The notes beneath the pieces were generated by a model. The model worked only from the letters and a program-made list of their open reading frames with translations. It was not told the DNA's origin and did no database searches. This document shows, in pieces, positions 4,116 to 64,000 of a stretch of 64,000 nt of DNA. The DNA comes from a virus: positions 1 through 64,000 of IMG/VR virus record IMGVR_UViG_3300045911_000062; one strand, 5' to 3'. The position numbers and the translations under genes were made by a program. How positions within the stretch are numbered: position 1 is the stretch's first letter; the number at the start of each line of letters is the position of its first letter.

Positions 4116-4118
4116 AAG

Positions 4119-4148: not shown

Positions 4149-4177
4149 GTTTTCCACTCAAGTAAAAGGAAGCCCTT

Positions 4178-21340: not shown

Positions 21341-21982
21341 ATGATTAGAAAAACACTTCAAGACTTTTATGATAAGGTATCAGGCAGAACAGTTTATGTC
21401 ATTGCCGGTGGGTCAACAGTAAAAACACAAAATTTAAACCTTTTAAATGGAAAATTAGTAGTATGCCTTAACAATTCATATTCTATTTATCCCGATGCAT
21501 TGGCATTATATTGGGCAGATGAAACATGGGTGAATAACCATATAGAAGGTGTAAAAAATCATCCAGCTAAATTTAGATTTCATAGTAAATTCCATGTCTC
21601 TGATAAGTATTTAAATAGTGAAAAACATCTTGGAATTGGAAATTCAACTATATTAAGACGTACTGGTGATAAAGGAATAGATCCAGATTTAAATAATGTT
21701 AGGGGCAACAATAGTGGAGCACATATATTAAATTTATTGTATAATTGTAAAGTTAGAAGAATAATATTATTAGGATATGATATGAAAATTATTGATGGTA
21801 AATCACATTGGCACGGTGGACACAGCTTATCAATAAAACCAGAAGTATACTGCAATCTTTTTATACCTTCAATTCAATCTATGGCAGATTTTTTTAAGCG
21901 TGCAAATATAGAAGTTATAAACACGTCACCAAATACAGATTTAAAATGCTTTCCTAGAATGAAACTTGAGGATGTCGTATGA
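21341..21982 (+). CDS. Maf/DUF115-like (sialyltransferase-like) glycosyltransferase
   Basis: VIAGGSTV, VCLNNS, WAD--W, NNSG-H-LNL, IILLGYDM and HWHG motifs. Confidence 0.65.
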   Translation: MIRKTLQDFYDKVSGRTVYVIAGGSTVKTQNLNLLNGKLVVCLNNSYSIYPDALALYWADETWVNNHIEGVKNHPAKFRFHSKFHVSDKYLNSEKHLGIGNSTILRRTGDKGIDPDLNNVRGNNSGAHILNLLYNCKVRRIILLGYDMKIIDGKSHWHGGHSLSIKPEVYCNLFIPSIQSMADFFKRANIEVINTSPNTDLKCFPRMKLEDVV

Positions 21983-22548
21983 CACAACCTATTATAGTTA
22001 CAGCTTTCAGTTCAAATGAATACTATATTAAATGCGCAGAAAAATTTAAAAAAATGTTTCATAGAAATTGTAACAATTTATTAATTATGGAACAATTTAA
22101 TGATTGTGGAGACTGGCATTCTAATACTAGAAAAAAACCATCAATAATACTAAAAAATCTATGCGAACAAAAACAAACAATTATGTGGATAGATGTTGAT
22201 GCAGAAATATACAATCCTATAGAACTAGATGTTCCAAATGATATTGATATGATGGCTGTTAGGCAAGAGTGGGGACCAAGAAGAACCTGGTGTGTAGGTA
22301 CTATTTTATTTAATTATACACAAAATTCTATAGATTTTTTAACGGAATGGTGTAATGTATGTAATTCAAATAAAGGAACAGATGAAGCTAATCTTGAAAT
22401 TGTTTGGCAAAAGAATTGGAAAAATAAATTAAAAACACAACTATTACCTAGAAAATTTTTTATGGTAAACAAGTTACACGAAAAACAAAAAGATACTGTA
22501 ATACTACACTATTCTTCTGGAAACGCTAGAAAAAAGGAAAAAATATGA
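21979..22548 (+). CDS. Nucleotide-diphospho-sugar transferase (GT-A, GT77/GT34-like)
   Basis: KP-II, WIDVDA (DxD), DE-L and I-H motifs. Confidence 0.7.
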   Translation: MTQPIIVTAFSSNEYYIKCAEKFKKMFHRNCNNLLIMEQFNDCGDWHSNTRKKPSIILKNLCEQKQTIMWIDVDAEIYNPIELDVPNDIDMMAVRQEWGPRRTWCVGTILFNYTQNSIDFLTEWCNVCNSNKGTDEANLEIVWQKNWKNKLKTQLLPRKFFMVNKLHEKQKDTVILHYSSGNARKKEKI

Positions 22549-23219
22549 ACGGAGTGTCTTGGGGAGTTGTAAGTTGTCAACACGACAGTATAGTAATTGT
22601 TTGTAGTGGAAGAAGTTTAAAATCATTTGACATGAATTTATTATCTGGTATTGGACACATTATATGTGTCAATAATTCTTATATTGGTGTTCCCATTTAT
22701 GATGCATGGTTTACCCTCGATCCATGGGGATTGTCTGGTGGACAGTTACCAAAAAAAGGAAATCCAAAATTATACGCAGCAGTTCCACAAGACTTTGGGA
22801 CGCCACACGCAAAAATTCAAAGTCACAGGATAAATGCACCAAAAAATATAACGTATTTACATAGGTTAATATCCCATAATAATCCAACTGTATCAAGTGA
22901 AACTGCTTATAGATTAGGTTTGAGTGAAGACCCCGGTTGTATAAATACTGGCAACTCTGGTTTTGGTGCTCTAAATCTTGCATACCACATGAAACCAAAA
23001 AAAATTTTGATATTAGGCATGGATGGAGATATAGGATATTATTATTCCGGATCAGAAAAGAATAGATCATTGAAATTTTTACCACTAATGATGGAATCTA
23101 CGGTTGATCAGTTAAAAAAAGCAAATATAACAGTAATAAATGGCAGTTTAAACAGTAGTATAACTTGTTTTCAAAAATATACTCCAGAAGAATCAGTAAA
23201 AATATTCAAGGATATTTAA
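22545..23219 (+). CDS. Maf/DUF115-like (sialyltransferase-like) glycosyltransferase, paralogue of 21341..21982
   Basis: IVCSGRSL, ICVNNS, FTLD, NSGFGALNLAY, ILILGMD and VINGS motifs. Confidence 0.65.
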   Translation: MNGVSWGVVSCQHDSIVIVCSGRSLKSFDMNLLSGIGHIICVNNSYIGVPIYDAWFTLDPWGLSGGQLPKKGNPKLYAAVPQDFGTPHAKIQSHRINAPKNITYLHRLISHNNPTVSSETAYRLGLSEDPGCINTGNSGFGALNLAYHMKPKKILILGMDGDIGYYYSGSEKNRSLKFLPLMMESTVDQLKKANITVINGSLNSSITCFQKYTPEESVKIFKDI

Positions 23220-23222
23220 AAA

Positions 23223-24560
23223 ATGCTTGACACTATAATTAAATCTATAAATGACACTAAAGACATAAATGGCAATATAGTTTTTTTCAGAGTGTATAAA
23301 GGTGATATAATTATACGTTTAGCAAAATTGGATATTACAGAAAAGAATTTTTTGATCATACATAATTCTACTGGCTTAGAGCAACCTACCATTTTTGATT
23401 TTGAAAAAGATAATAAGACTTGCTTATACAACAAGGGAAGGTTTTCATTTTCTAGGAAAAATCTTATAAATCGTCTAAATTCTAACATAAAAAACTATAA
23501 AAATAAATTCACAATAAATGATTTTCGTGATATAAAAACTGCAATAAAAAATTTAAAAAATATATCGCCATCTATTTGTGTTATAGATCTAATCCAATAT
23601 GAGCCTACAAAAGAATGTTTAGAGTTTTGTTTTAAAATACTACCAATAAATGGTAATATTATTATAACAAATTACGTTGAAACGAATAATAATCTAAGTT
23701 CAAAAGCCGTTAATGAATTTCTTTATAAAAATAATGACAATATATGTAAAACAATCAATAGTATAGAAAAAACAATAACATTAACAAAAAAAGAAGAATC
23801 TACACAAGACATAATAGAAATATTTCAATACAAAACGGAATCATATAATAATGAATCAGACTTAATACAAACATTTCCATACAAAATGGAAACATATAAA
23901 AATGAACCAGACTTAATAATATCATGTGTGTTGCGTACAGGAGGACCAGTTTATAATTACAACTATGTTAATGCTCTAGCTAATTCTATTAAAAAAAATG
24001 TAAAAATACCACACGAATTTGTATGTCTTACCGACGATCATACCGGATTTAATTCTAATGTGGACTCAATTATAAAATTAAAACACGATTTTAAAAAATG
24101 GTGGTGTAAAATAGAATTATTTAGACCTGATATATTTAAAAACAAAAGAGTATTTTTCTTAGATTTGGACACAGTTATTTTAGAAAATATTGATAATATA
24201 GTTAGTAAGAAATTTAATTTTTGTGGACTAAGAGATTTTTATAAAAATGATACGCTTGGAAGCGGTTTAATGTCATGGACATCAGGCGGTTATCACCATA
24301 TTTATGAAAAATTTTTAAGAAATTCACAAGCAATTATGAATTACACGCCAGAAGGCGATCAACAATGGATCAATCAAAATGTTGATGGCATAACATATTT
24401 TCAAGATGTTTTCGGATCTGAAATTGTTTCTTATAAAAAACATTGTATTAAAAATAAAATATTTAATATGCCTAAAAATGCAAAAATAATATGCTTTCAC
24501 GGAGTACCAAAGCCACATGAAATTAACTATCCACAAATAAGGGATCATTGGCTGCCTTGA
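23223..24560 (+). CDS. Degenerate TylF-like methyltransferase domain fused to a GT-A glycosyltransferase
   Basis: N-domain has GNIVFFRVYKG and IDLIQYEPTK-CLE...GNII (eroded TylF motifs). C-domain has VLRTGG-Y...YV, WWCKIELF, FLDLD, GDQ and CFHG-PKPHE. Confidence 0.7.
   Translation: MLDTIIKSINDTKDINGNIVFFRVYKGDIIIRLAKLDITEKNFLIIHNSTGLEQPTIFDFEKDNKTCLYNKGRFSFSRKNLINRLNSNIKNYKNKFTINDFRDIKTAIKNLKNISPSICVIDLIQYEPTKECLEFCFKILPINGNIIITNYVETNNNLSSKAVNEFLYKNNDNICKTINSIEKTITLTKKEESTQDIIEIFQYKTESYNNESDLIQTFPYKMETYKNEPDLIISCVLRTGGPVYNYNYVNALANSIKKNVKIPHEFVCLTDDHTGFNSNVDSIIKLKHDFKKWWCKIELFRPDIFKNKRVFFLDLDTVILENIDNIVSKKFNFCGLRDFYKNDTLGSGLMSWTSGGYHHIYEKFLRNSQAIMNYTPEGDQQWINQNVDGITYFQDVFGSEIVSYKKHCIKNKIFNMPKNAKIICFHGVPKPHEINYPQIRDHWLP
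23808..23918 (+). repeat. Imperfect 51-bp (17-aa) tandem duplication in the interdomain linker
   Basis: DIIEIFQYKTESYNNES / DLIQTFPYKMETYKNEP / DLI. Confidence 0.85.
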
Positions 24561-24588: not shown

Positions 24589-25635
24589 ATGTCAACTATA
24601 AAATATAAATGTAATACATGTAAAAGAGAAGTTGAATTGTTAGAAAATCAAAACGGGTTAACCGTAATTGGTAGATGCGTGTTGACTAATGGTTGCTTTG
24701 GAAAACTGCAACCTATTGCGAGAAACCCATACAATATAAGAGAAACGTATGATTATTATGACAATGACCTTTCTGAATTATATGAATTCAATTCTAGAAA
24801 CAAATTTTTTAACCATCATCAGATTAATAAAAATACAATATGGAGAATTAAACACAATTTAAATAATCATCCATTTGTAGTAGTATTTGTTAATACTGGT
24901 AACGGAATAAAAAAACTAGATAAATCAAACTATTCTATTAATTATATAGATTCTAATAACTTAATTGTTAATTTAGATAATGCATCTGGCGTAGCTCATT
25001 GTATAGCAAGAACTTCACAACATGACATTATAAAATATTCAGAACCAACAGAACAAATGACCCAAGTTACAGTTGGTGGAACATTCACATTTGCTATTCC
25101 AAAATTACTTACAAAAATTGATACTCCCACACCAACACCAACTCCATCGTTGCCATTAGATTTACAATTTATTGGCGATATAGAATTGGAAATAGGGATA
25201 ACAAAGCCTAATGAAGAGGAAGTTATTTGTTTTGAAAAAATACCAACAACCCAGATAGCTTCTCCATGGGTTGGCATAAATGAAATACTCATACGAAACC
25301 GTAGAAATTATTACGTCAAAATGAAAAACATTTTACAATTTACTACTTTCGATAATGCAAATTTAACTTTTTCTGATATACCTGATGGAACAAAAATTCG
25401 ATTCATCAGAATCAATTATGGTACTGGAATACGTCAAAGCATACCGTCACGAGGAGCATTTGTTCTATTAAGTACCTATCCACACAAAATTCATGATAAA
25501 ACGTTAGACAAAATTCTTGATTTAGGTGAAATAGTAGATACACAATATTGGTATATGACATATAATGGGGGAGAAGTTTATATTAATACTAATGCTATCG
25601 AATCCACATATCCGCATATAAGGAAGGTTTCATGA
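24589..25635 (+). CDS. Putative virion structural protein (Cys motif, HNL beta module, TPTPTPTP tract)
   Basis: C-C...C...C N-terminus, WRIKHNL module and a Thr-Pro insert at about 25123-25146. Confidence 0.55.
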   Translation: MSTIKYKCNTCKREVELLENQNGLTVIGRCVLTNGCFGKLQPIARNPYNIRETYDYYDNDLSELYEFNSRNKFFNHHQINKNTIWRIKHNLNNHPFVVVFVNTGNGIKKLDKSNYSINYIDSNNLIVNLDNASGVAHCIARTSQHDIIKYSEPTEQMTQVTVGGTFTFAIPKLLTKIDTPTPTPTPSLPLDLQFIGDIELEIGITKPNEEEVICFEKIPTTQIASPWVGINEILIRNRRNYYVKMKNILQFTTFDNANLTFSDIPDGTKIRFIRINYGTGIRQSIPSRGAFVLLSTYPHKIHDKTLDKILDLGEIVDTQYWYMTYNGGEVYINTNAIESTYPHIRKVS

Positions 25636-26591
25636 TAATAAAAACAAACTTTTCTAACGGATTGATATATTCTTGGGATGGAATAAATAATCCACTAAAA
25701 TATTCTAATGGATATGTTTCTATTAAAAATACAAAAAAATTAATATCTTGTACTATGTCACATGGTATTAGAAATTATTATATAGAGTTAAAAGATAAAA
25801 ATAATGCTTGGCACATCAATTCATCAGAAAAAACTTGGTTATTAGTACAATTAAATAATTTTACAGGTGAATTACAATATATTACCACAACCATAAACCC
25901 AGAAAACAAATTTGGAACAACTCTACCTAATCAAATTAATATAGGAGAAATGTTTTTTAATTTAACAAATAATAGAATGTTTCAATGGAATGGTTACAAT
26001 TGGGTTAATATAATTCAAATAATAGTTGGAACGTGTCAAAATGGTGTTGTTAATATTTCACATACCGGAACTCAAGTAGGATCAACAAAACCTTCATTTT
26101 GTAGCACAATATTACAGTCTAGAAATGGTATTCCACTGAGAATACAAGATGGTGAATATTATTCATTTATGACTCAAATGGATTATAAAGATAATGTTAA
26201 CTCGTGGAAAACTTCTACAAACATACTTTTAAGTAATTCCATATATTACGGAGTCGCCTCTGAAAATATTCCACATCTTTCTTTGTTAAGTATTGATAAT
26301 AACGGTAATATAGTTAAAGCAAATAACATTAATAAAGTAGCATTTGCTATATCTATGGGGAATTTTTCAATCGGTCAGGTAGTAAAATATATAACTCGTG
26401 GTGAAATTGTTGACAATTCTTGGATATTTGGCCCTGATGAAATCAACAAAAATTTATTTTGTGATGAAAACGGTCGGCTTACTACACATCTTGCTAAATC
26501 TAATATCATTCAAAAAATTGGTACAATAATAGGAAGAGATATTATAGATTTTTACCCGCAAGAGCCAATTTATTTAAATCCTAATTTTTAA
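25632..26591 (+). CDS. Putative virion structural/fibre-anchor protein, paralogue of 791..1747
   Basis: Same layout as 791..1747, with A-ENI...G--V-A...G-I-D-W-F...G-LT...QKIG. Confidence 0.55.
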   Translation: MIIKTNFSNGLIYSWDGINNPLKYSNGYVSIKNTKKLISCTMSHGIRNYYIELKDKNNAWHINSSEKTWLLVQLNNFTGELQYITTTINPENKFGTTLPNQINIGEMFFNLTNNRMFQWNGYNWVNIIQIIVGTCQNGVVNISHTGTQVGSTKPSFCSTILQSRNGIPLRIQDGEYYSFMTQMDYKDNVNSWKTSTNILLSNSIYYGVASENIPHLSLLSIDNNGNIVKANNINKVAFAISMGNFSIGQVVKYITRGEIVDNSWIFGPDEINKNLFCDENGRLTTHLAKSNIIQKIGTIIGRDIIDFYPQEPIYLNPNF

Positions 26592-26619: not shown

Positions 26620-26627
26620 TATAAATA
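26620..26627 (+). promoter_or_regulatory. T4-type late promoter TATAAATA
   Basis: Exact consensus 24 nt before ATG 26652. Confidence 0.6.
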
Positions 26628-26651: not shown

Positions 26652-27437
26652 ATGAAATTTTACGGTGACATAGAATTAATAAACGGAAAAATTTTAGGTT
26701 TGCATGTAGAAAATGTTGAATCTATTTCTCTTTCAGAAATTGATAGCAATAGGTTATTGTCATTTAACGGTAAATTATATTTTAATAATGGTACTGGTTA
26801 TAAACTAATACAATTCTCAGATACTGATCAAGAATCTCCATTAATAACAACACTTGGTCCATGGATTAACGATGATTTATCATTTAACTCTACGTTATTC
26901 AATGAATTTAATAATGTGTCTGGATTAACATCTGAAAATTCTTTGTTCGATGTTTTGAACCAGCTTGATACTGCTATATCAAATGTGACTCAAAATTCTA
27001 TATCAGATTTACAAGATGTTATGTTAAATAGTCCAGATTTTGGAGATATTTTAATTTTTACTTCAAACACTTTTGTGAATATAAGCTTAGAAAATGCTAT
27101 AAAAAATTATGGAAATCTACGTATAGCATCTTCAATGCAAGACTATGAAACGTCTGGCGTTTTGCTGAACAATGATTTATTATATTGGAATTCCAACACT
27201 AATAAATTTTCAAACAAACGTTGTTTTTATAGATTTTCGTCTCAAACATCTCAAAGTGAATATGTGTTAACACATAATTTAGGAGTGAAATACTGTTTTG
27301 TTGAAATATTTGATAAACTAACAAGTAAAAAGATAAGTTCAAATAATTATGAAGTAAAATATGTTAATGAAAATCAAGTGGAAATAATTTTAAATAACCA
27401 GACTGCTGCGGAAATTATAGTATTCTCTTTATCGTAA
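26652..27437 (+). CDS. Putative fibre protein (L-DV repeat + HNL module)
   Basis: ISDLQDV...GDILIF...F-N fibre-shaft-like repeat and C-terminal THNLG module. Confidence 0.55.
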   Translation: MKFYGDIELINGKILGLHVENVESISLSEIDSNRLLSFNGKLYFNNGTGYKLIQFSDTDQESPLITTLGPWINDDLSFNSTLFNEFNNVSGLTSENSLFDVLNQLDTAISNVTQNSISDLQDVMLNSPDFGDILIFTSNTFVNISLENAIKNYGNLRIASSMQDYETSGVLLNNDLLYWNSNTNKFSNKRCFYRFSSQTSQSEYVLTHNLGVKYCFVEIFDKLTSKKISSNNYEVKYVNENQVEIILNNQTAAEIIVFSLS

Positions 27438-27450
27438 ATATTGAACAAAT

Positions 27451-27741
27451 ATGTTTAACAATTTAAGAAAATTAAAATTTAATAAAAATGATTTATTATA
27501 TAGCGCAGATGCAATATTAGTTTCTAATGACATCATACAATATTCATTCTCATCACCATCTTTAGAATGGGTTATAAATCATAATTATAATACTAAAAAT
27601 GTAATAGTTCAAACATTTGACTCCAATAATGAACAAATAATGCCATCTTCAATTTCAATAAATGAAAATACAATAAACATAACATTTTCTAATCAAGTTT
27701 CAGGATTTGCAAATATTATGTTTATCAATGTAAAATTATAA
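27451..27741 (+). CDS. Small HNL-module structural protein
   Basis: WVINHNY-T-NV-VQ-FD...P--I...N-I-I-F...SG-A. Confidence 0.55.
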   Translation: MFNNLRKLKFNKNDLLYSADAILVSNDIIQYSFSSPSLEWVINHNYNTKNVIVQTFDSNNEQIMPSSISINENTINITFSNQVSGFANIMFINVKL

Positions 27742-35390: not shown

Positions 35391-37730
35391 TTAATTTTCC
35401 CTTCGTTCGTGAGGTTTATAATGTTTAATTCTATTATGTAATATTGGAGATGCTAATAAAACTGCTGGCCTCAAATTACCTTCTTTAGTCATCTGGTACA
35501 TATAAGACATCCATGTTTGTTCATATGGATGAACCCATTTTGTATCAATAAACATTTTCTTATTACCTTTTTTAGAAACTATCATTGGCCAGTTTGCATA
35601 ATAAATTTCACCGTCAATATATGTTAATCCATCCAAATTTCTTATATTTTTGAAAATCGTCAACGGTGAATTGGGATCTAGACCTTGAATTGGTAATTTA
35701 TCATAATCTGGCCAATCTCTACTCCTTATATGTTGCGGAACGTTATACCATGAACATTGTTTATCATTGTCCAAGAACACTTCTGTAAAAGTTAATTTTA
35801 GAAAATCAAATTCATCTTTTAGCATTATTCTATGCACTAAATTATAAAGATTTGGAATATATTTTCTAAATCCATTCCTACAAAATTGTGATGAAAACTC
35901 TGGAGGGTTAATCGTCATATCATCTTCAAAGAAAAACATAAAATCTGCTTCAGAATCATGAAAATGTTCAGCGGCTCTTTGTCTTCCACCACATATACCA
36001 GTATTTCCGTTCATATCTATGTATTCAAATTTATACTCATTAGCAATCTTTTTATTTTGTTTTTTTGCTTTTACGTCTGTTGAATTGTCTATAAGAACTA
36101 AATGTGGCCTTTTTAACCATTCTGGTGTTTTTTCCATAGATTTAATAGTATGCTGTAATTGTTCTGGAAAATTGAATGTTAATATATACAGATTTGTCTT
36201 GTACTTTTCTACATCTTTATCGGTATATATTTTTATATTTTTAATTTTCTTTTTTTCTGTTTCAACAATTTTAACATTACCGTCGATAATAGCCTGTGTA
36301 AATTTAACAATTAAACCATTCCCATCCAATTCAAATCTTCTATAAATGTCAGGCTGATTATATGCCATGATCGTAAATATACTTTCCTCAGTCCCCATAT
36401 AACCATCATTTAATGTTTTATTTAAAATAGAATAATATGTTGCATTCGCATCATTTATTTGTTTTTTATGTCCACCAAATAGCCCACCTCTACAAACATA
36501 TTCTACTTTTTTTCCAGCGTAAATATTAATTTTATTAAATTCAAATCCATGAATTTCGGTATTAGCTTCATATGGATAACTAAGAAACAAAAATGGATTT
36601 GCATACTCTGGTAATTTGTCGAGTACATTATTATCTACTAAATGAGAATATGAAACAGTATTTGTAATACCAGCGTCTAACCAGAAAAAATATTCAGTAT
36701 CAAATGGATTCCAAATAGTCGCATCATTTAGCATAAACATTTTTGATTGTACTATTGGGTTGTACCACTCTAAACTGGCTTGTGGCGATTCAGATAACCA
36801 TCCTGCTAAATTTCTCCATTTAGGATTATTGCGTATTTTTTGTGTAACATCCCAAAAAGGTGAATATAATTTTTTTATATCTTCTAATTCATATATTTTT
36901 ACATAAGTGTTGCGTCTGTCTCTTTTTTCCCAAACTAAATATTCCAAATCTTTTGGAATATAAATAAAAAGATTTTGTGGAATATCTAAAAAATTTTTAA
37001 AGTTTTCTATATAATGTTCAAATGGTCTGCCGACTCTGTTAATGTTCCACAATCCTGTAACTATAGTCATGTTTTTATTAACATTAATGCTATTTTTATA
37101 TTTCATATTAACAAAATCCTCAAATTGTTCAACTCGACCAATTTTTAAATTATTTTTTCGAACTATTAATAAATTATATGTATAAAAATATTCATGATTA
37201 TCAATAATATTAAAAATTTCATGTCGATAATCTACTAAAACATTACTAGAATCTGCATTGCCACCTATATCTTCAATTATATAGTATCCATCATTTTTTA
37301 CTTTGTTAAACAAATTTATAAATGTTTTATACTGACCTTCTGAAGTATGTAAGCCATCATCTATTATAATATCAAATGTTAGTCCATTTAAATTATCTTC
37401 ACAGCTTTGTTTATCCAAAGAACTAAACAAAAATGTTTTTATTCTATCTTCAGAAATCATACAATCTTCTGCTATGTCAACGCCATATATATTTGCATTT
37501 TTAAAGTATTCTTTCCAGGCTCGTAAACAAGCTGCTGGCTTATAGTGTGGGTAAAAATTAGTCACTCCTACAAATGTAGATTCAATATTTGGATCTAAAG
37601 TACCTAAGCCAACCTCCAATATGTCTATACTATTATCTCTAATTTTTTCAAACAATGCAGAGTATTTTTTAGTATATCCAGAAAGAAATTTATCACTACC
37701 ATTTTTAATTATTATATCATCTAAGTTCAT
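35391..37730 (-). CDS. Three-domain protein: methyltransferase + HtrL-like + GT2-like glycosyltransferase
   Basis: Methyltransferase: SDK...LEVG...GVDI...IIIDDG-H...YIIED. HtrL-like: IVTGLW...WLDAG...GGLFGG...GTEE. GT2-like: IDNS...N-GI-GGR...FFEDD. Confidence 0.75.
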   Translation of the reverse strand: MNLDDIIIKNGSDKFLSGYTKKYSALFEKIRDNSIDILEVGLGTLDPNIESTFVGVTNFYPHYKPAACLRAWKEYFKNANIYGVDIAEDCMISEDRIKTFLFSSLDKQSCEDNLNGLTFDIIIDDGLHTSEGQYKTFINLFNKVKNDGYYIIEDIGGNADSSNVLVDYRHEIFNIIDNHEYFYTYNLLIVRKNNLKIGRVEQFEDFVNMKYKNSINVNKNMTIVTGLWNINRVGRPFEHYIENFKNFLDIPQNLFIYIPKDLEYLVWEKRDRRNTYVKIYELEDIKKLYSPFWDVTQKIRNNPKWRNLAGWLSESPQASLEWYNPIVQSKMFMLNDATIWNPFDTEYFFWLDAGITNTVSYSHLVDNNVLDKLPEYANPFLFLSYPYEANTEIHGFEFNKINIYAGKKVEYVCRGGLFGGHKKQINDANATYYSILNKTLNDGYMGTEESIFTIMAYNQPDIYRRFELDGNGLIVKFTQAIIDGNVKIVETEKKKIKNIKIYTDKDVEKYKTNLYILTFNFPEQLQHTIKSMEKTPEWLKRPHLVLIDNSTDVKAKKQNKKIANEYKFEYIDMNGNTGICGGRQRAAEHFHDSEADFMFFFEDDMTINPPEFSSQFCRNGFRKYIPNLYNLVHRIMLKDEFDFLKLTFTEVFLDNDKQCSWYNVPQHIRSRDWPDYDKLPIQGLDPNSPLTIFKNIRNLDGLTYIDGEIYYANWPMIVSKKGNKKMFIDTKWVHPYEQTWMSYMYQMTKEGNLRPAVLLASPILHNRIKHYKPHERREN

Positions 37731-37775
37731 GGCCAATACTTTAAAAAAATAATAATATTAGTGCATTAGTAAATT

Positions 37776-40466
37776 TCACAAACCTATCTCCACTCTTTCG
37801 GCCCATCCTCTTTCTGGTGAATGTCCCCAAAAAACTAATCTATTTGGTTTTTCATTAATAATAAACATTTCTTCATAGTGAATAGTACCATCTCCATTCA
37901 AAAATCTTTTTAGATTTTGTCCATCAATGTATTTTGTATGAATTGGTTTCCCTTCTTTGTCATCAAAAGCTACTAATATAAAATTATAATCGTTTGCTGG
38001 TAATTGTTTTCTATCTATATTAACTAGATGGTAAAATGATTTGTGGAATGATTCTTCCCATTCTCGTTCAGATTTATATGTGTATGGATTTGGCGGAAAA
38101 TTATTTTCCATTGTCCATTTCTGGAAAGCACGTTTTTTGAAATGTATTCCAGCATATTTCTCATAATCACGTAAAGATCTTACTTTTCCTAATGTATATG
38201 GTCCTAGATCGTGACCATTATTTTCTGTTTGTAGTAATTGCCTAATACGAGATCTGGCTATATCTTGTTGCTTCCACCATCTGTTATCTCCTCGTTTATG
38301 ATGATCGTCCCAAACTAAAATTCCAGACCGCTCCTCACGCATTGTTGCATGCCATATAACTACCCTGTGAGGATGAAATAAATCATATCCATGAGTATAG
38401 CTTCTGACTGTTAAATTTATCTCTTCTCCACTAAAAAATATATTAGGATCATGACGAACATCTCTAGCCCATTTATTAGGTCCAAAAGCAAAATGACCGC
38501 TTAAGAATCTTGCTGGATATGGCTTAGTAAGACTCTTCCAATTTTTAACAGCAGTCGGCCTAATAAAAATAGTTCCGAATGGATAAAAACATGCTGCTTC
38601 TGATAACCACGGCTCTTGTACTCTATCTGCCGGATCATTTTTTGGATTATAATATGGCAAATAACCACATATTAAAGGATTATATCCTTCATTCTTTAAT
38701 TCGTAGTACCAAGACAAAAGTGTAATATCCCAATCTTCTTTAAATCTATGGTGAGAATCTAATTGTAAAACAAATTCTTCATCTTCAAGTAAAGTATCAT
38801 TTATTAAAGCTCTTGCATATCCCAATCCTTTAGCTTCTAAGTAATTAATATCTATTATTTTAAATCTGGAATCAGTTCTAAATTCATCTAAATTATCAAA
38901 CCCATCATCTGGATTGAATTGCCTACATATTCCAAAAATTATTCTATCTGGATATTTTGCATTCTTTAGAGCATCCTTTATAGTAGGAACTAACTCTGGC
39001 TCTCTATATGCTGGTAGATGAACCAATATTCTATCAGATTTTATATGTTCATCTATTGATTTTATAATTTGTATTTTATTCTCATCTTGTTTATACTTTA
39101 CATCAATATTAAAATTTATAGTAGGCACTTTTTCTTCAATTTTGTTTTTTTCGTATATGTTTCCTTCTATAATAGATTGCCAACCATGCTCTTTTGAATG
39201 AGGCCATACGATCCACTTATAAGGTTTTTTATCATAATAAAAAGATCTCCAAATTTTACAATAACCATCTGGATCATTTTTCATTCTTTTTATTTCTTCG
39301 GGGTCTATATCTTGACGATGAATCTCTTTGCCATCTTCATCCTTAAATGCTACAACTAAACAGGTATAATCATCATATGGCAACTGATTAAATTGAATAT
39401 CTATGCAATGTTTAAAAAAGTTTAAAAATGAATTATTATAATCTTCTTCATTATCAAACTGTGGATTCGGAGCATAATTATTTTCTAAAGTGTATCTTTG
39501 AACTTTTTTATCACTAAACCTTATTCCCGAATATTTTTCATAATCTTTTAAAGTCCTTTCTGGTCCAAAACCATACTTACCAAACTCTTCAGGGTTATAA
39601 ATTTCACCGTCCATACTAAACAATTTTCTACAACGCAAATGTGCATTAGAATTTAGTTTATGCCAATTTGAATAATCATCCCAATGTTTCTTCAACCCCC
39701 TTCTTGTATAGAAATGCCAAGCGACCACTTTATGAAGATGATATAAATCATACCCCCATGTAAAAGCACGTACTGCAATAGAATGCTCTTCTCCATGGAA
39801 ATATAATTCTGGATCGTGTTGAACCTCTACAGCAAATTCACCCTGAGTAAATGCAAAATGTGCAGAATAAAATCTTGCTGCAACTGGTTCGGTTCTAGAC
39901 TCATAATCATCTATCGTTGCTGGTAAAAAATGCACTATACCTTCTGGACTAAATCTATCAAAATTCATTTTCCATGGTGCTTTGAGCCTGCTATCAGGAT
40001 CATTATCAGGATCATATGATGGTAAATAACAAGTTATTAATGGTTTTTTTGATTTTTTCTTCAATGATTCATATTCATTTATTAAAATACTATCCCATTT
40101 TTCTACAAATCTATGATGAGAATCTAATTGAAGTGTATATTTTTCCCCATTATATTCCTGTTGAATCCTATTTCTCGCCCAGCATGCGCCCTTAGATTCA
40201 GTATATGGGACGTCTAATAAAAGTATAGACGCCCCATCTTTACTTAGTAAGTATTTGTCGAAATCTTTATCGATTTCAGAAAACACCTGCTCTATAATAA
40301 AGTTATTATCTAAAAAATTTTCTACTGATTCATCGTCTGAATGTTGCCAATTTACACAAATCTTTAAATTTTGTGGGTATTCAGCATTTTTTATAATATC
40401 TATTAATGTAGGTATTAATTCGTTATCTCTATAAGATGCAATCTGTACAAAAATTGTATTTTCCAT
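37776..40466 (-). CDS. Tandem double GT60-type (Gnt1/GlcNAc family) polypeptide N-acetylhexosaminyltransferase
   Basis: Two repeats. Domain 1: IFVQIASYRD-EL--T, KGACWAR, LQLDSHHRF, F-GEE, R-FT-GYD, WH. Domain 2: ILVHLPAYRE-EL--T, KGLGYAR, LQLDSHHRF, FSGEE, RSYTHGYD, WH. Confidence 0.8.
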   Translation of the reverse strand: MENTIFVQIASYRDNELIPTLIDIIKNAEYPQNLKICVNWQHSDDESVENFLDNNFIIEQVFSEIDKDFDKYLLSKDGASILLLDVPYTESKGACWARNRIQQEYNGEKYTLQLDSHHRFVEKWDSILINEYESLKKKSKKPLITCYLPSYDPDNDPDSRLKAPWKMNFDRFSPEGIVHFLPATIDDYESRTEPVAARFYSAHFAFTQGEFAVEVQHDPELYFHGEEHSIAVRAFTWGYDLYHLHKVVAWHFYTRRGLKKHWDDYSNWHKLNSNAHLRCRKLFSMDGEIYNPEEFGKYGFGPERTLKDYEKYSGIRFSDKKVQRYTLENNYAPNPQFDNEEDYNNSFLNFFKHCIDIQFNQLPYDDYTCLVVAFKDEDGKEIHRQDIDPEEIKRMKNDPDGYCKIWRSFYYDKKPYKWIVWPHSKEHGWQSIIEGNIYEKNKIEEKVPTINFNIDVKYKQDENKIQIIKSIDEHIKSDRILVHLPAYREPELVPTIKDALKNAKYPDRIIFGICRQFNPDDGFDNLDEFRTDSRFKIIDINYLEAKGLGYARALINDTLLEDEEFVLQLDSHHRFKEDWDITLLSWYYELKNEGYNPLICGYLPYYNPKNDPADRVQEPWLSEAACFYPFGTIFIRPTAVKNWKSLTKPYPARFLSGHFAFGPNKWARDVRHDPNIFFSGEEINLTVRSYTHGYDLFHPHRVVIWHATMREERSGILVWDDHHKRGDNRWWKQQDIARSRIRQLLQTENNGHDLGPYTLGKVRSLRDYEKYAGIHFKKRAFQKWTMENNFPPNPYTYKSEREWEESFHKSFYHLVNIDRKQLPANDYNFILVAFDDKEGKPIHTKYIDGQNLKRFLNGDGTIHYEEMFIINEKPNRLVFWGHSPERGWAERVEIGL

Positions 40467-55932: not shown

Positions 55933-55949
55933 AGTAAGAATATACAACA

Positions 55950-55982
55950 AAAAAGGCAAGGACACAAGTTCCTTGCCTTTTT
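55950..55982 (-). terminator. Rho-independent terminator downstream of the tail sheath gene
   Basis: AAAAAGGCAAGGA-cacaagt-TCCTTGCCTTTTT. Confidence 0.85.
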
Positions 55983-58314: not shown

Positions 58315-59103
58315 TTAATTTGGTGGAATGTCCATATCATCAATATCATATAAAACTTTATATGGAGGATCTGACCTATTTACTTCTCTGACTTTTTCAT
58401 TGACATCTTCTGTATTTTTAATAGCTTCTAATCTTAACTTAACAGCCTTAATAAAATTAGTTTTAATATTTACGGGTGGAACTAAATAAAACCACACCAA
58501 AAAATTTAGATTAGTTACTATTATTCTTTTATCTGACAATTTTGGATAATTTGTATTAAACTCAATAGATTTTAATTGAACTTGAGTTATTCTCACAAAA
58601 TCGTGTATGTCATCGCTAGTTTGAATTTGTAAAGTTGGATCAAATATCATTAAAATTTGTTCTAATATTTGAAAATGTTCATGTTCATTACTAGTGTATA
58701 TGCTAAGTTCCATCATTCCATCATAAGGAACGGGAACCTGCTTATAAATTACTTTTAAATCGTCTGGTAGTGCTCCACCTCTTGGCAGATTAGTAGTACG
58801 CTCTTGAGCACCTATTCCCTTTAATCTTTCTGTTGCTAAATCAATACCAGCCATATTAACTGATATAACTGGTAAACTTAACGGCTTATTTTGCGTATTC
58901 TCTGATATAATTGCATCTACTATTCTACTAGAATTTCCATATCTAACTGGAACTTCTACAAAATCATTAGATGAATCAACATTTGAATTTTTTCCGACTT
59001 TTACTTTTAACCCGGAAAAAATTGCCATAAATTGAATTATATAACGCCTTAACTGTGCGTCATAAAAATAAGTATCCAAGTCTTTTTTAAAGTCATTATT
59101 CAT
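58315..59103 (-). CDS. Tail terminator / sheath stabilizer (gp15-like)
   Basis: YFYD-Q-RR---QF, VP--YG, P-PY---ELSIYT and QILEQI---F-P. Confidence 0.85.
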   Translation of the reverse strand: MNNDFKKDLDTYFYDAQLRRYIIQFMAIFSGLKVKVGKNSNVDSSNDFVEVPVRYGNSSRIVDAIISENTQNKPLSLPVISVNMAGIDLATERLKGIGAQERTTNLPRGGALPDDLKVIYKQVPVPYDGMMELSIYTSNEHEHFQILEQILMIFDPTLQIQTSDDIHDFVRITQVQLKSIEFNTNYPKLSDKRIIVTNLNFLVWFYLVPPVNIKTNFIKAVKLRLEAIKNTEDVNEKVREVNRSDPPYKVLYDIDDMDIPPN

Positions 59104-59116
59104 TATTTTAAAATTA

Positions 59117-59842
59117 TTATTTAGTTATTGTATTATTTATAATTATACCAAGCAAAATAGTCTCATTCCATACATGAGTAGAAATTGTTGCATAAAATTC
59201 TATATTAGATCTAATTATATGTTCAATATAATTAGCATAATCACCATCGTCTACTGAATCAGAATTGCTCAAGGATTTATTGACATATTGATTATCAGTT
59301 AAATCAAACCAAGAGATAGCATTCAATGCTTCCGGCAAACTACCACTTTCTGATAGTATAACACATAGTGTAATTCATGGTGTAATTGATGGTGTAATAG
59401 ATGGTGTAATTGATGGTGTAATAGATGGTGTAATAGATGGTGTAATAGATGGTGTAATAGATGGTGTAATAGATGGTGTAATAGATGGTGTAATAGATGG
59501 TGTAATAGATGGTGTAATAGATGGTGTAATAGATGGTGTAATAGATGGAGTATTACTGACTATTACAAATTGTTTTGAATTTTCAATAAAATATATGTTA
59601 AGAAGTCCAATAACATTATTTGAAAAATTAAAATTTATATATGTATCATTATATGTTATATTGTTAGGATATATTTGTTGGCCATTTATATCTAAAATAT
59701 TAAAATAAAAATTTGTTCCGTAATTTCTTACTGATACAGAATTACCATTAAACTTTATAGATCGCCATTTATCATTATCTGGTGCCTGACCAGAATGTAA
59801 TATTATATTTCCAGTTAGTATATCTAAAAAACAATTTGACAT
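59117..59842 (-). CDS. PSIT-repeat structural protein. One 242-codon frame is split by a single TGA (59375-59377) in the last repeat unit; the ORF track lists it as two ORFs
   Basis: CCA TGA ATT ACA versus repeat consensus CCA TCA ATT ACA. The frame continues without a stop into the 59117..59338 ORF. Confidence 0.7.
59369..59548 (-). repeat. 12-bp tandem array: (Pro-Ser-Ile-Thr)14 plus one stop-containing unit
   Basis: (CCATCWATTACA)n. Confidence 0.97.
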
Positions 59843-59927: not shown

Positions 59928-61784
59928 TCAAAATGATGATGGTGTTGGCGTTACATCTGGTGTAATTGTTGGGGTTGGTGTCGGTGTCAATGTAATATTT
60001 GGATCAATATCAATAGAGTTCAATTCACCAAATGCAATTGTTTGAATATCTTCATTAGATGGATCTATAAAATCGACTAAAGAAAAAGAAGAAATAGTAT
60101 TACCATCAAATTCAAATGCATAACCGTTTGAATTTAATGGGAAATAAATTCTATGACGACCTGAACGCCCGGAAACATGCATAGAAGATGCATATGATCC
60201 CATATCATATAGTGGATTAAAAAGTTCATTTCCTAAATGATCAGTCATAATAAATCCACTTGAATAAATTTGAAGGTTATAATCTGATGTGTCAACTAAA
60301 TATGTCACATAGCCTGTAATGGTATCCATTTTAACATCTAATAAATTTGAAATTGTATAAGAGTTATTTAATGATATGGTTCCAAAACTATCTACAGAAA
60401 AATAATTTCCAATATGATCTACACCTGTGTATACATATGCAAAAACAGTGTTATTATAATATTGAATATATTCTATTTCATCATCAAAAGTATATGTATC
60501 AACTAAAGTAAATGTATTTGTTATATTATCAAACGTGTATGTATGAAAACTATAATTTTCACATATTACATAATAATCTCCAACTTTACCTATATTTCTA
60601 CAATGCATATTTGTATTAGAAATTAAATTTAAATGATTATTTGTTATAGTAAATATTAACAAACCTGGAGGTGTTAAATTCTCTGGCGGTATTCCTTCCG
60701 TAAAACCCTGTCCCGCTGGCACGAATAGATATTCAGTTCCATCAATATAAGTAAATAAAACATCCCTAGTAAAAAGAAAACAAGAACCATTCCATGGATA
60801 TGGTTCTACTATTGCATCATAATATGAAGTTATAAACAATGAAGAACCATATCTAACCAACATTAAAATTGAATCATACCTGACCAAAACTGCATGATTA
60901 TTATGAATGGCGGATAGTATTGTATAAGTTTCAGTGTTAAAAACTAAATCTGGAAAATCATAATTATATGCAATTATATTTAAATCTGACATATCATACG
61001 ACACATATGAAGATGCATCGACGTTTGATTGTAACATAAATTCTTCTTCAACAACAAGTATTGGCGTATTTGATGGTGTAATAGATGGTGTAATAGATGG
61101 TGTAATAGATGGTGTAATAGATGGTGTAATAGATGGTGTAATAGATGGTGTAATTGATGGTGTAATTGATGGTGTAATTGATGGTGTAATTGATGGTGTA
61201 ATTGATGGTGTAATTGATGGTGTAATTGATGGTGTAATTGATGGTGTAATTGATGGTGTAATTGATGGTGTAATTGATGGTGTAATAGATGGTGTAATAG
61301 ATGGTGTAATTGATGGTGTAATTGATGGTGTAATTGATGGTGTAATTGATGGTGTAATAGATGGTGCTACATATTCTATATTAATGTAATCTTTTATGTC
61401 TACAAAAATTAAATTGGCATCCATAACAAAACCAACTTTTTGCATTATCCCTTTATTTGGTACAACAGTAGTTAATTCTCCGCTTTTACCTAAAAAAAGT
61501 GGAGTCATTGGGGGTGCAGAAAATATATTTTCACCAAAATCTATAACGCCAAATCTAATATATTTAATAAGTTCTTGTGGAGAAGAATTTTGTATTGCTA
61601 CTCCATGACATTCTAAAAAATTTGCTGTTGATGCCAATTTTACTAAATTATCACCATACGATACATTTACACAATAAAATTTTGGTATATATTCTATTGC
61701 AGACCCTTCGAGATGTTGACATTCAAATTTAGTGCTACGTAGATAATTATCTATAATTGATATTTTTTTATCTGGGTCAATCAT
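59928..61784 (-). CDS. Putative fibre protein: anchor module + (PSIT)24 stalk + beta-rich head + TP tail
   Basis: N-module shared with 791/25632, then the repeat, about 350 aa of aromatic beta-rich sequence and C-terminal TPTPTPTITPDVTPTP. CATAAATA at 61806-61813 (-). Confidence 0.65.
   Translation of the reverse strand: MIDPDKKISIIDNYLRSTKFECQHLEGSAIEYIPKFYCVNVSYGDNLVKLASTANFLECHGVAIQNSSPQELIKYIRFGVIDFGENIFSAPPMTPLFLGKSGELTTVVPNKGIMQKVGFVMDANLIFVDIKDYINIEYVAPSITPSITPSITPSITPSITPSITPSITPSITPSITPSITPSITPSITPSITPSITPSITPSITPSITPSITPSITPSITPSITPSITPSITPSITPSNTPILVVEEEFMLQSNVDASSYVSYDMSDLNIIAYNYDFPDLVFNTETYTILSAIHNNHAVLVRYDSILMLVRYGSSLFITSYYDAIVEPYPWNGSCFLFTRDVLFTYIDGTEYLFVPAGQGFTEGIPPENLTPPGLLIFTITNNHLNLISNTNMHCRNIGKVGDYYVICENYSFHTYTFDNITNTFTLVDTYTFDDEIEYIQYYNNTVFAYVYTGVDHIGNYFSVDSFGTISLNNSYTISNLLDVKMDTITGYVTYLVDTSDYNLQIYSSGFIMTDHLGNELFNPLYDMGSYASSMHVSGRSGRHRIYFPLNSNGYAFEFDGNTISSFSLVDFIDPSNEDIQTIAFGELNSIDIDPNITLTPTPTPTITPDVTPTPSSF
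61077..61364 (-). repeat. 12-bp tandem array encoding (Pro-Ser-Ile-Thr)24
   Basis: 288 bp of (CCATCWATTACA)n, the same unit as 59369-59548. Confidence 0.97.
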
Positions 61785-61808
61785 TTGAAAATCCAAAGAT
61801 GTTAGTAT

Positions 61809-64000
61809 TTATGACGGACATGATCCATTTTCAAAATTTTGTAATCTTATAACACCAATAGATGGAGAAGATACATTAATAGTAGACTGTAATGCTACCC
61901 ATGATGTTTTAAATATATCAGAATGATGTTTTTTATGCGTCATAGCTGCATGCAATAATTCAAAAAATATTTTATTGACTTCTTCTGTTGTAAAATTGTT
62001 ATATATTGCATACATAGTAGTTATAATATTACTTTCACTATTCAAATTATTATTTTTTAAAAACTCATTAATATCTACATTATTATACTTTATATTTGGG
62101 TCGTTTAACATGCTATTGACAATATATTTTGCTAATTCTCCATCCATAAATACCTGTTCTTCACCTAGACCATAACGAGTATCACTATTATAAATGTTGT
62201 CATAAACTGTCCTATTTAATGATGGTAATAATTTTGTTTCATCAACAGTTCCTGAAACAATTCTTTTTCCTATCATACTTTCTATGACTCTATCCCATAA
62301 AAACATATCTATTTTAGCTAATTGCTTTTCACGAATTAATTTCCATTCCCAATGTACATTTTTTAGATATAAAGGAGAATATAATGAATTTGGTGAAGGC
62401 AATTCGTCACGTAACGTAAAATCTCTTGTAAATCGTAGAGCATATCTAGAATCATCTTTTATCGTATTTTCTAACCCTTTAACTACCAATTGTGTATATC
62501 TATAAGGAAGTTCATATTCATCTTCATCATAAACAATACCATAAACTAAGCCATAACCGAACTCTGGCGTTCTCAACCCTTGCAATATCATATGTGGTTC
62601 TGGTATAAAACGTAATTGATTTTGAGCCTCTTTCAGATTTATTAAGGAGTCTCCAGTCAGAGCTATTTTATTCTCTTTATTTTTTACCCAAAAATAGTAA
62701 ACTTTATATTCTTTTTTGCTCAATGGATCTAGTTTAGTTACATAAGAATGTGGGTATACTTTTTTGTAAATTCCTCCAGCATCTAACTCATCTTGTGTAG
62801 GCATGCGCGCTTCAAATACAAGTGTCACAATATCTTGTGGTTTAGGTTTAGAAATTTGATTTTCCAATAATGCACCATAACAATAATCATGTAAAGAATA
62901 TAAATCTAAATCTAAAGTTCCTACATAAAAACCATTAATATATACTTTTGCATCCGTATGAATTAGATTTTCTACTATAGTATCTGGCTCTACTAATTTT
63001 ACTGTAAATTCGAATATTTCATCTTTATGTTCCACCCAAATTGGTGGCATTCCAGTTTCTTCTTCTATATTTCTATATATTTTATAATAAGCCTCACCTG
63101 TACGTTTATCATTCTGTAATAAATTTTTATTTTTCAAATCTTTAGCAACTGCTAATCCCCATTCTTCAGGATGAACCAAAGATTCTGTCCATTGATACAT
63201 AACTATTTCACCAAAATCGGCCATGCGCCCCCAATTAAAGATACGATAGTTAATATCTGGAAATATTTTAGAATCATAATATGGTATGTAATACATTTTA
63301 GACGTATCTAACCATACTATTCCCTCTTTATTCTTCAACCAAACAGTCTCATTGGCACTTGTATCCTCAAAATTATAAATGGCTTTATCATTGTCTGATT
63401 GTATATCTATCACGAAATTGGGTATATGATAATGATGACCTATAGCTGGGTGCCATATTGGTATTCTTTTCATCACCACATCAGATTTTTTATCTAATAA
63501 AGTAGCAGGATTTTGAGCATCATAATTATATGATAAAGTTGTTACTGTTATGTTAGTCTTTCCTGATATGTCATAAAATTCTATTGCACCTGTGTTTATT
63601 AAATTATAATCATACCCCTCAGATAATTGTTTATTAGTTTGTGTTTCACTGTCATAGTATGTAACTATTACTTTGTCGGATTTTAACGGTAACTTAAAAA
63701 TATATCTTCCATTTATTACTTTGATTGGAACTGTATTATTAAAATTAACTATGTTTATTTCATTTTTTGTAGTTTTAGCATATTTTGTATGTATTTCTAA
63801 TTCATTTTCTATATTATATGATATTGATGTTACTTGCACATCAAAGTAAAAAGAAGGTTTTGGTGATAGCATGTATAACTGATCTGGTTGATTCCACCAT
63901 CTGTGTAAATCTGTCAAACGAACAGGCTCAAATGTATCATTTAATGATCCACCATCTGGAGTTACAAATTCAACCCTCATTTCTTTTGTTGATGCATCTC
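61809..64000 (-). CDS. Large baseplate wedge-like virion protein (5' end truncated by the window edge)
   Basis: Frame is open beyond 63980. Motifs VWLDTS---Y-PY, WG, YQWTES---P-EW, YYFWVKNK, H-EW-LIRE and FKTSW. Confidence 0.65.
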   Translation of the reverse strand, partial: DASTKEMRVEFVTPDGGSLNDTFEPVRLTDLHRWWNQPDQLYMLSPKPSFYFDVQVTSISYNIENELEIHTKYAKTTKNEINIVNFNNTVPIKVINGRYIFKLPLKSDKVIVTYYDSETQTNKQLSEGYDYNLINTGAIEFYDISGKTNITVTTLSYNYDAQNPATLLDKKSDVVMKRIPIWHPAIGHHYHIPNFVIDIQSDNDKAIYNFEDTSANETVWLKNKEGIVWLDTSKMYYIPYYDSKIFPDINYRIFNWGRMADFGEIVMYQWTESLVHPEEWGLAVAKDLKNKNLLQNDKRTGEAYYKIYRNIEEETGMPPIWVEHKDEIFEFTVKLVEPDTIVENLIHTDAKVYINGFYVGTLDLDLYSLHDYCYGALLENQISKPKPQDIVTLVFEARMPTQDELDAGGIYKKVYPHSYVTKLDPLSKKEYKVYYFWVKNKENKIALTGDSLINLKEAQNQLRFIPEPHMILQGLRTPEFGYGLVYGIVYDEDEYELPYRYTQLVVKGLENTIKDDSRYALRFTRDFTLRDELPSPNSLYSPLYLKNVHWEWKLIREKQLAKIDMFLWDRVIESMIGKRIVSGTVDETKLLPSLNRTVYDNIYNSDTRYGLGEEQVFMDGELAKYIVNSMLNDPNIKYNNVDINEFLKNNNLNSESNIITTMYAIYNNFTTEEVNKIFFELLHAAMTHKKHHSDIFKTSWVALQSTINVSSPSIGVIRLQNFENGSCPS

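Follow-up and report, generated by a model that had tools for sequence, protein, structure and literature searches.

What does a phage make with a gene that spells out one tetrapeptide 24 times without interruption? Such a gene lies in the 64,000-nucleotide (nt) stretch studied here (the window), which comprises positions 1 to 64,000 of IMG/VR record IMGVR_UViG_3300045911_000062; it occupies 59928..61784 on the minus strand. The window is part of a 73,946-bp viral contig of ~29% G+C whose sequence is present in public hot-spring and microbial-mat metagenome runs, and the phage is a member of the XacN1 clade of jumbo myophages, from a hot-spring microbial mat. An earlier note, made from the letters alone, had read the product as a mucin-like fibre protein with an anchor, a glycosylated stalk and a beta-rich head, and we confirm its observation of the gene and tract as a whole. 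On balance, we favour a modular virion fibre with a bead-type anchor, a probably O-glycosylated stalk and an orphan head. The parts of this account differ in strength: we are highly confident of the domain architecture, consider it likely that the protein is a virion fibre, and see the chances of a glycosylated stalk as about evenly balanced. The interpretation in the earlier note is supported in part: its anchor, as a fibre domain, and its layout stand, and glycosylation gains circumstantial support.

The gene starts with an ATG at 61784 and encodes 618 amino acids (aa; computed mass 68.5 kDa, isoelectric point 4.3), in the order arm (residues 1-22), N-module (23-138), PSIT tract (141-236), C-domain (240-597) and tail (598-618; for coordinates, see Table 1). 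The frame is coding, since 360 open codons are expected by chance at ~5e-13 given the base composition of the contig. The whole protein matches no Pfam family at E ≤ 0.01, including the PT repeat (PF04886) and other curated linker families, and neither Pfam nor PHROG gives a match to a curated family of the T4 fibritin (wac) type. In T4, fibritin is encoded upstream of the neck and gp15 genes, and it is in this position only that it is analogous to the target gene.

Only two variants occur among the 24 units of the array, 15 copies of CCATCAATTACA and nine of CCATCTATTACA, which are one synonymous base apart. Tandem Repeats Finder scores the array at 533 (25.4 copies, 97% matches), far above chance. 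The earlier note's count of 96 pure Pro-Ser-Ile-Thr residues with 48 Ser/Thr is exact, PSIT being read 24 times at residues 141-236. With 50% Ser/Thr and 25% Pro, the tract has the Pro/Thr/Ser-rich tandem repeats expected of mucin-type domains. At 0.31-0.34 nm per residue it could reach up to ~30 nm. The same 12-bp units form a second, direct array in the adjacent small gene.

The N-module links the target to proteins of known role. It had been described as shared with other putative structural proteins of the window, and this holds, except that in these proteins the module is C-terminal: by blastp, residues 23-138 match the last ~115 aa of open reading frame (ORF) 791..1747 (35% identity, E 1e-15) and, more weakly, the C-terminus of ORF 25632..26591 (E 2e-5). 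We refer to these paralogs as ORF791 and ORF25632. Used alone as a query, the module gives no matches to longer proteins, and only alignment-based search succeeded; a profile search recovered 18 family members. Among solved structures, hmmsearch of the PDB matched a single chain, gp82 from the neck fibre of the Anabaena myophage A-1(L) (residues 118-241 of 8KEG chain a), with E-values of 2.6e-13 (profile A4) and 1.3e-6 (module-only profile A1), and hhalign aligned the family to gp82C at 95% and to the gp81 bead at 75% (E 2.6e-5). These profile comparisons make the target N-module a homolog of two bead domains of the A-1(L) neck fibre, gp82C and gp81.

In the A-1(L) fibre, gp82N binds the neck, a gp82C trimer, ~14 gp81 trimers and a gp80 trimer form a chain of beads, and the beads are joined head to tail through N-terminal hairpins (PMC10966104). 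The target resembles gp81 in having a short segment (22 residues) before its bead, and ORF791 resembles gp82 in having an N-domain of virion-binding type followed by a bead. The N-domain of ORF791 and gp82N gave no alignment, the profile having matched only the bead part of gp82. By analogy with gp81 and with decoration proteins, residues 1-22 of the target may act as a docking arm. The two systems differ in how they gain length: A-1(L) uses its ~14 globular beads and has no low-complexity tract, (TPxx)5 pattern or PF11397 protein, whereas in the target one bead is followed by 96 residues of tetrapeptide repeats and then by a large domain without relatives.

To examine the fold of the module, ORF791 was modelled with AlphaFold from the alignment of the family (predicted local distance difference test score, pLDDT, 79). 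Residues 193-310 of this model superimpose on capsid decoration proteins of HFTV1 (Z 11.5) and of FCWL1, Pam3, Adjutor and T1 (Z ~10.4; structures 8qsy, 9kmg, 8hdt, 8saj and 9kzj, Z 10.4-11.5), with 105-116 residues aligned, root-mean-square deviations of 2.4-3.1 Å and 8-15% identity, and on the base of the phi29 head fibre (Z 7.0). As modelled, the paralog's module folds into the beta-tulip seen in the trimeric decoration proteins of capsids; for the target, the fold call rests on this paralog model, whose module is 35% identical to its own. The bead domain is probably trimeric. The N-domain of the model (residues 1-153) is closest to the HFTV1 tail fibre (Z 7.4) and the receptor-binding protein (RBP) shoulder of phage p2 (Z 6.7). 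In fold the module is thus like beta-tulip decoration and cement proteins, and the layout of a base with a projecting fibre recalls phi29 gp8.5, whose stalk is structured and not a Pro/Ser/Thr tract. Unlike capsid decoration proteins, the target is encoded in the tail/neck block, and sequence identity to them is as low as given above.

The succession of module and tract is not peculiar to the target. In the family alignment, a period-4 T/P tract follows the module in P0005, P0008, P0010, P0011 and P0013, and P0005 adds a globular domain; P0008, P0010, P0011 and P0013 are orthologs of ORF25632 with TP tracts at the end. The same holds in G001, a close relative (IMG/VR genome of 306,759 bp, gp15 92% identical), where the target ortholog of 221 aa consists of the module (68% identity), a ~55-residue (S/T)VTP / SVTA tract and a further 23 residues. 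These five family members and the G001 ortholog follow one rule: module, tract, optional distal domain. Three other genes are inserted in G001 before the ortholog of the small gene, which is uninterrupted there and encodes an N-domain, (TVTP)n and a small C-terminal domain. Together, the family members and the differences in G001 indicate that distal domains come and go at the tracts.

The anchor-stalk-domain layout is real. Relatives of the phage show it as well, and so do viral contigs unrelated to it, with lectin or propeller domains behind the tract. Xoo-sp13_331 has a Laminin_G_3 lectin domain in this place (E 3e-11). In an unrelated viral lineage (L021 and L022) an N-domain is followed by (VTPA)3(ITPS)6 and a long FG-GAP-like (propeller) repeat domain. 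A further unrelated contig, L023 (IMGVR_UViG_3300010412_000089; 41% G+C), has a frame that stays open for more than 831 aa, along which at least three globular domains alternate with PS(I/V)T/PSIS tracts of up to ~200 residues, as beads on a mucin string.

The C-domain of the target has no detectable relative. Exhaustive phmmer search of 1.84 billion (1.84e9) representative proteins gave zero matches, and none were found in a word-index search of 5.8 billion proteins, by tblastn of the whole 618-aa protein against 50,697 phage records, or in an IMG/VR pattern scan; no Pfam family matched at E ≤ 10. Self-alignment gave no internal repeats (z < 1), and hhalign against the propeller-like N-domain of XacN1 and Xoo-sp13 gave a probability of 0.1%. 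The composition is strand-friendly (Y, T, I, S and N 8.9% each, K 0.6%), and the single-sequence AlphaFold 2 (AF2) model consists almost only of strands and hairpins, at a pLDDT of 37, too poor for a fold search. Because relatives are lacking and the model failed, the beta-rich head of the earlier note is only plausible, as an all-beta domain predicted from composition and model. For the propeller or lectin that the note had in mind, the distal domains of Xoo-sp13_331 and of the L021/L022 lineage offer a modest analogy. The second TP tract described there is present: TLTPTPTPTITPDVTPTPSS occupies residues 598-617 of the tail, which may be a further glycan acceptor.

Tracts of this kind appear to be a property of the clade. 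The tail sheath is 54% identical to those of the Xanthomonas phages XacN1 and Xoo-sp13 and the Stenotrophomonas phages CM1 and RAS14, and in six out of six clade members examined one or more genes with a T-P-(S/T)-(V/I)-type tract lie just upstream of gp15. A strict DNA pattern for (TPxx)5 was found in G000, G001, G002, XacN1, Xoo-sp13 and CM1, while the reversed control pattern gave zero everywhere; there was none in RsoM2USA or PA5oct (the next-nearest jumbo phages) or in A-1(L). G002 has its (TPSV)n array 116-190 nt before gp15. A T-P-x-x register in which Ser/Thr and Val/Ile are frequent is common to the tracts of the clade. In G001 this motif class occurs in three genes with other codons and other higher-order periods, which argues for constraint on the peptide in addition to homogenisation of the DNA.

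In XacN1, Xoo-sp13 and CM1, the gene directly upstream of gp15 (XacN1 ORF369, Xoo-sp13_331 and a CM1 ORF of 542 aa) encodes two globular parts joined by a T/P tract of 40-230 residues. These proteins share with the target the slot and the combination of globular parts with a long T/P tract, but its globular parts have no detectable similarity to theirs. In XacN1 and Xoo-sp13, a large propeller-like domain precedes the tract, the tracts are imperfect and the bead module is absent, all unlike the target. The N-terminal 310 aa of ORF369 (L001:6285-8069) and of Xoo-sp13_331 (L017:2153-4063) have a repeated S-x-D-G-x-x-W; these Asp-box-like repeats, recognised by eye and giving no Pfam match, suggest a propeller. 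The C-termini are a Cys-rich tail of 45 aa in ORF369 and the Laminin_G_3 domain in Xoo-sp13_331. The contig of G001 starts and ends inside a (TPTV)n array (L003:1-370 and L009:2713-3160), and contig L002 also breaks there. The reported terminal repeat of G001 is probably the tandem repeat itself, and its "direct terminal repeats" and "100% complete" call may reflect this repeat instead of true genome ends.

The case for glycosylation of the stalk is circumstantial and starts from a protein of 896 aa with two PF11397 domains, a family which we equate, going by its Pfam name "Glycosyltransferase (GlcNAc)" and by characterised members (PMC8724618, PMC6939170), with CAZy glycosyltransferase (GT) family GT60. 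The motif LQLDSHHRF stands in both halves of this protein, which by its sequence is a candidate initiating polypeptide N-acetylglucosamine (GlcNAc) transferase; ORF 37776..40466 thus supplies a candidate for the initiating polypeptide N-acetylhexosamine transferase that mucin-type domains need in the same system. PF11397 was found in G000, G001 and XacN1 (ORF334 in the latter), and among 50,697 phage records in only four phages, all of the XacN1 clade. It was found neither in 14 control prokaryotes nor in A-1(L); its absence from four fragmentary viral contigs, 12-23% complete, is uninformative. Neither this protein nor the 445-aa phrog_1962 protein has sequence relatives in the PDB. Other glycan enzymes are spread over the window (Table 1): the 645-aa protein of the glycan island has a C-terminus resembling the GT-D-like ORF, there are two polysaccharide pyruvyl transferases in the window in total, and MptE-like matches are sub-threshold only.

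In T. cruzi and Dictyostelium, the GT60 enzymes that have been characterised initiate mucin-type O-GlcNAc within Thr-rich domains, and another GT60 activity is cytoplasmic, on a hydroxyproline of Skp1 (PMC8724618, PMC6939170, PMC3769586). Given a protein O-GlcNAc transferase of eukaryote type in the phage, the spacer may have a coat of sugars, as a mucin does. Virions of XacN1 show at least two glycoprotein bands on periodic acid-Schiff (PAS) staining, not matched to proteins (PMC5852040, Suppl. Fig. S4). The target tract shares dense Ser/Thr and regular Pro with protist mucin-type domains (T. cruzi mucins and gp72, Dictyostelium modB substrates), and the glycosylated tract of T. cruzi gp72, PTVTPTP...TPSPTITI, is of nearly the same motif class as the phage tracts (PMC3630849). 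As in the protist systems, a PF11397-family enzyme is encoded in the same genome as the tract. Unlike the protist tracts, that of the target is a perfect tandem array with Ile/Val every fourth residue. A further difference is that the protist GT60 enzymes, except Skp1 Gnt1, work in the secretory pathway, while the phage would need the reaction in the bacterial cytoplasm.

Hydroxyproline-linked glycosylation was considered and set aside: the match to a 2-oxoglutarate (2OG) oxygenase is sub-threshold (14 bits) in G000 and G001, and there is none in cultured clade members. As there is no prolyl hydroxylase above threshold, a Ser/Thr linkage is likelier, if there is any. The sub-threshold 2OG-Fe(II) oxygenase (PF13640, 14 bits) lies at 48323-48961 (minus strand) of the window and is kept in G001; it would bear on the tract only if prolines were hydroxylated.

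In the fibre that we favour, the target would trimerise through its bead, and arm and bead would dock onto a bead-bearing partner (ORF791 or ORF25632, whose N-domain would resemble a shoulder and bind the virion) or else straight onto neck or capsid. An extended spacer would be formed by the tract, keeping the orphan domain, as a ligand-binding head, off the particle. Its Ser/Thr residues would be O-glycosylated in the cytoplasm during assembly, with the tandem GT60-type enzyme starting glycans that other phage enzymes extend, so that the stalk is stiffened and shielded. The identical 12-bp units may allow stalk length to change in frame and distal domains to be swapped or lost: with two direct arrays in adjacent genes, the sequence between them can be deleted or exchanged, and the differences in G001 fit this. 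More tentatively, and at somewhat less than an even chance, XacN1-clade phages may run a self-encoded, eukaryote-like mucin-type O-glycosylation in the bacterial cytoplasm, with the T-P-(S/T)-(V/I) arrays in the stalks of several virion fibres as dedicated acceptors. In such a pathway the first sugar would be added by the tandem GT60 enzyme, and the chains would be built up and capped by GT-D, GT2/HtrL, amino-sugar, pyruvyl and methyl enzymes.

Glycosylation of phage virion proteins is barely documented, and GT60-type initiating enzymes are otherwise characterised in protists. A mucin-like acceptor stalk together with such an enzyme would, if true, be a new way to build, stiffen and shield phage appendages, and a source or sink for a "eukaryotic" glycosyltransferase family. 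A clade-wide pathway would give the particle a set of glycan-coated, length-variable and domain-swappable appendages. A simple route to rapid exchange of the distal, probably binding, domain is suggested by the rule of module, tract and domain together with the arrays of identical 12-bp units. Through the homology to A-1(L) beads, a family of jumbo-phage proteins that lack annotation gains its first clue to function.

Several points weigh against a bead-anchored, glycosylated fibre with a binding head. The placement of the target protein in the virion is a prediction from sequence for this phage, and the modelled bead fold is compatible with attachment to neck, capsid or fibre chain alike. The C-domain as a binding head is a guess from the layout, given its want of relatives and of a reliable model, and the G001 ortholog, from the closest relative, has no C-domain, so the domain is dispensable or newly acquired. 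On the side of the glycans, the equation of PF11397 with GT60 is our assumption, Pro/Thr-rich linkers work sugar-free in many bacterial enzymes, and the co-occurrence of GT60 and tract counts as a single evolutionary event because it is confined to one clade. The glycan enzymes of the phage could serve capsid proteins, DNA or host polysaccharides, and the PAS-positive bands of XacN1 are not assigned to proteins (PMC5852040).

The nearest alternative keeps the fibre and makes the PSIT tract a plain, unglycosylated linker like the Pro/Thr linkers of cellulases, the glycan enzymes having other targets, such as proteins of the capsid or tail tube, the DNA of the phage or polysaccharide on the host surface. 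The best-known roles of phage glycosyltransferases are in modifying DNA and serotype (PMC12619734, refs 44 and 46 therein). The virion proteins of mycobacteriophages are glycosylated at Ser/Thr-rich extensions by phage glycosyltransferases (Freeman et al. 2023, via PMC12619734), the targets named there being the C-termini of capsid and tail-tube proteins, not fibres, in another phage lineage. Nor was PF11397 seen in three unrelated tract-bearing viral contigs, which are only 12-23% complete. We nonetheless regard a bare linker as somewhat unlikely: the characterised PF11397/GT60 members found are polypeptide transferases (PMC8724618, PMC6939170, PMC3769586), a single clade acquired enzyme and tracts together while its nearest relatives have neither, and T-P-(S/T)-(V/I) is kept across the clade with different codons, which exceeds the constraint on a mere spacer. 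Another alternative relocates the protein to the capsid, as a head fibre or decoration protein seated with beta-tulip and arm on three-fold sites, as cement proteins and phi29 gp8.5 are. In structure the module does match decoration proteins best (Z 10-11.5, with the phi29 head-fibre base at 7.0), and an N-terminal arm followed by a beta-tulip is the decoration-protein layout. This too is unlikely, given that, at the sequence level, the neck-fibre beads of A-1(L) are the only homologs whose role is solved or assigned, that the gene lies in the tail/neck block beside gp15 and away from head genes, and that in the paralogs the module is C-terminal to a domain resembling tail fibres or RBP shoulders.

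Less probable still is that the tract matters mainly as DNA, as a recombination or slippage hotspot that shuffles distal domains, the protein being transient and possibly non-functional. Such a role would account for identical units in two adjacent genes, for the missing C-domain and inserted genes in G001, for a nonsense codon inside a unit of the small gene (see below) and for the relatives' assemblies that break inside such arrays. It is compatible with a protein that is also functional, however, and it is at odds with the 618 open codons of the gene (against the chance expectation given above for 360), with arrays that are always in frame, and with a motif kept at the protein level through other codons in G001. 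That the long array is an assembly artefact we consider very improbable, even though 288 bp of perfect 12-bp repeats are beyond short-read assemblers and Logan contigs collapse the arrays. The k-mer depth in the repeat is 1215 against 37.6 in the flanks (~32x), which fits ~39 units in both arrays summed; the exact number per array is beyond short-read assemblies, and depth informs the total only. In a contig of 1,581 nt, the 1,509-nt segment that separates the arrays is flanked on either side by repeat sequence, which fixes the order of the pieces.

Table 1. Coordinates of the target gene's parts and of related features in the window
Feature	Coordinates	Strand	Remarks
N-terminal arm, residues 1-22	61719..61784	-	aligns with linker and first strand before the module in ORF791-family proteins
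Bead module (predicted beta-tulip), residues 23-138	61371..61718	-	blastp paralogs, profile match, paralog model
(PSIT)24 tract, residues 141-236	61077..61364	-	24 exact 12-bp units
Orphan C-domain, residues 240-597	59994..61067	-	~360 residues; sequence searches and AF2
C-terminal TP tail, residues 598-618 (TLTPTPTPTITPDVTPTPSSF)	59931..59993	-	
TGA stop of target gene	59928-59930	-	
Late-promoter-like core CATAAATA	61806..61813	-	contains ATAAATA; ends 21 nt before target ATG
Giant structural ORF, 3' part in window	61809..64000	-	phrog_10938, virion structural protein
Small PSIT gene	59375..59842	-	92-aa N-domain and (PSIT)14
In-frame continuation behind TGA	59117..59374	-	86 codons
gp15-like tail sheath stabiliser	58315..59103	-	PF16724, E 2.7e-41; downstream of target
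Paralog ORF791	791..1747	+	318 aa; RBP-shoulder/tail-fibre-like N-domain and C-terminal bead module
Second paralog ORF25632	25632..26591	+	319 aa; C-terminal bead module
Tandem PF11397 protein	37776..40466	-	896 aa; two PF11397 domains, Pfam E 1.6e-117
HtrL_YibB and borderline GT2 protein	35391..37736	-	781 aa
Glycan island	6263..10682	-	645-aa protein, DegT aminotransferase, GT-D-like protein, polysaccharide pyruvyl transferase
PF03407 nucleotide-diphospho-sugar transferase and phrog_1962 glycosyltransferase-like protein	21979..24560	+	directly upstream of paralog cluster

The genes of the tail/neck block follow in the order gp6-like gene, giant structural ORF, target, small tract gene, gp15 and sheath. 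The earlier note placed the target between the baseplate wedge gene and gp15; the direct upstream neighbour is in fact the giant ORF, with the gp6-like wedge gene (phrog_10646, E 6e-269) one gene further, and the small PSIT gene stands before gp15. The giant ORF is an open frame of 3,103 codons at 61812..71120 of the contig (L015:813-10121), of which the 723-aa gene in the window is the 3' end, and it is 79% identical to a frame of 3,110 aa in G001. Its first ATG lies 248 codons into the open frame.

In the small gene, the 15th unit reads CCATGAATTACA, with TGA at 59375-59377 in place of a Ser codon (TCA/TCT), so the small protein ends after (PSIT)14. The TGA splits one frame into 59375..59842 and 59117..59338, and is unchanged, with no differences, in a 37.6x contig of the probable source run. 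Recoding was set aside: 20 of the 62 genes end with TGA, the target included, and TGA is therefore an ordinary stop in this phage. The continuation at 59117..59374 has no family match and is possibly a former distal domain of the small gene. A collinear alignment of the small gene's N-domain with that of the L021 protein is not significant (E 0.15), and homology was set aside. This N-domain (59565-59842, minus strand) carries a second shuffled module of ~60-90 aa (phrog_21918 / phrog_16122, "virion structural protein"), found also in ORFs 24589..25635, 26652..27437 and 27451..27741 on the plus strand.

Of the late-promoter core reported before the target, the shorter form holds: ATAAATA lies 21 nt before the ATG, while the exact TATAAATA is absent there and shows no enrichment across the window (18 copies, with 25.7 expected). 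Of the 61 copies of ATAAATA in the contig, 19 fall on the coding strand within the intervals 15-45 nt before the 62 gene starts, where ~0.6 would be expected and where the opposite strand has two, which makes ATAAATA a genuine upstream signal of the phage. The core stands at a similar distance upstream of gp15, the sheath gene and the small gene. This T4-late-like core, often as TATAAATA, is widely used, for example at 59134-59141, 17088-17095 and 26620-26627 of the window.

Elsewhere in the window, a (TP)8 tract (TIEPPTPTPTPTPTPTPTPSSEPS) lies close to the C-terminus of a 427-aa protein (13585-14868, minus strand) whose match to a head-protein PHROG is only weak; this protein is possibly another glycan acceptor. 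A DUF2201 metallopeptidase/VWA-like protein adjoins an AAA ATPase (2868-5671). Two HNH/homing-endonuclease paralogs (54376-55965 and 30127-31719, minus strand; phrog_3339, E 2e-81) are 36% identical to each other, and one of them lies directly downstream of the tail sheath gene.

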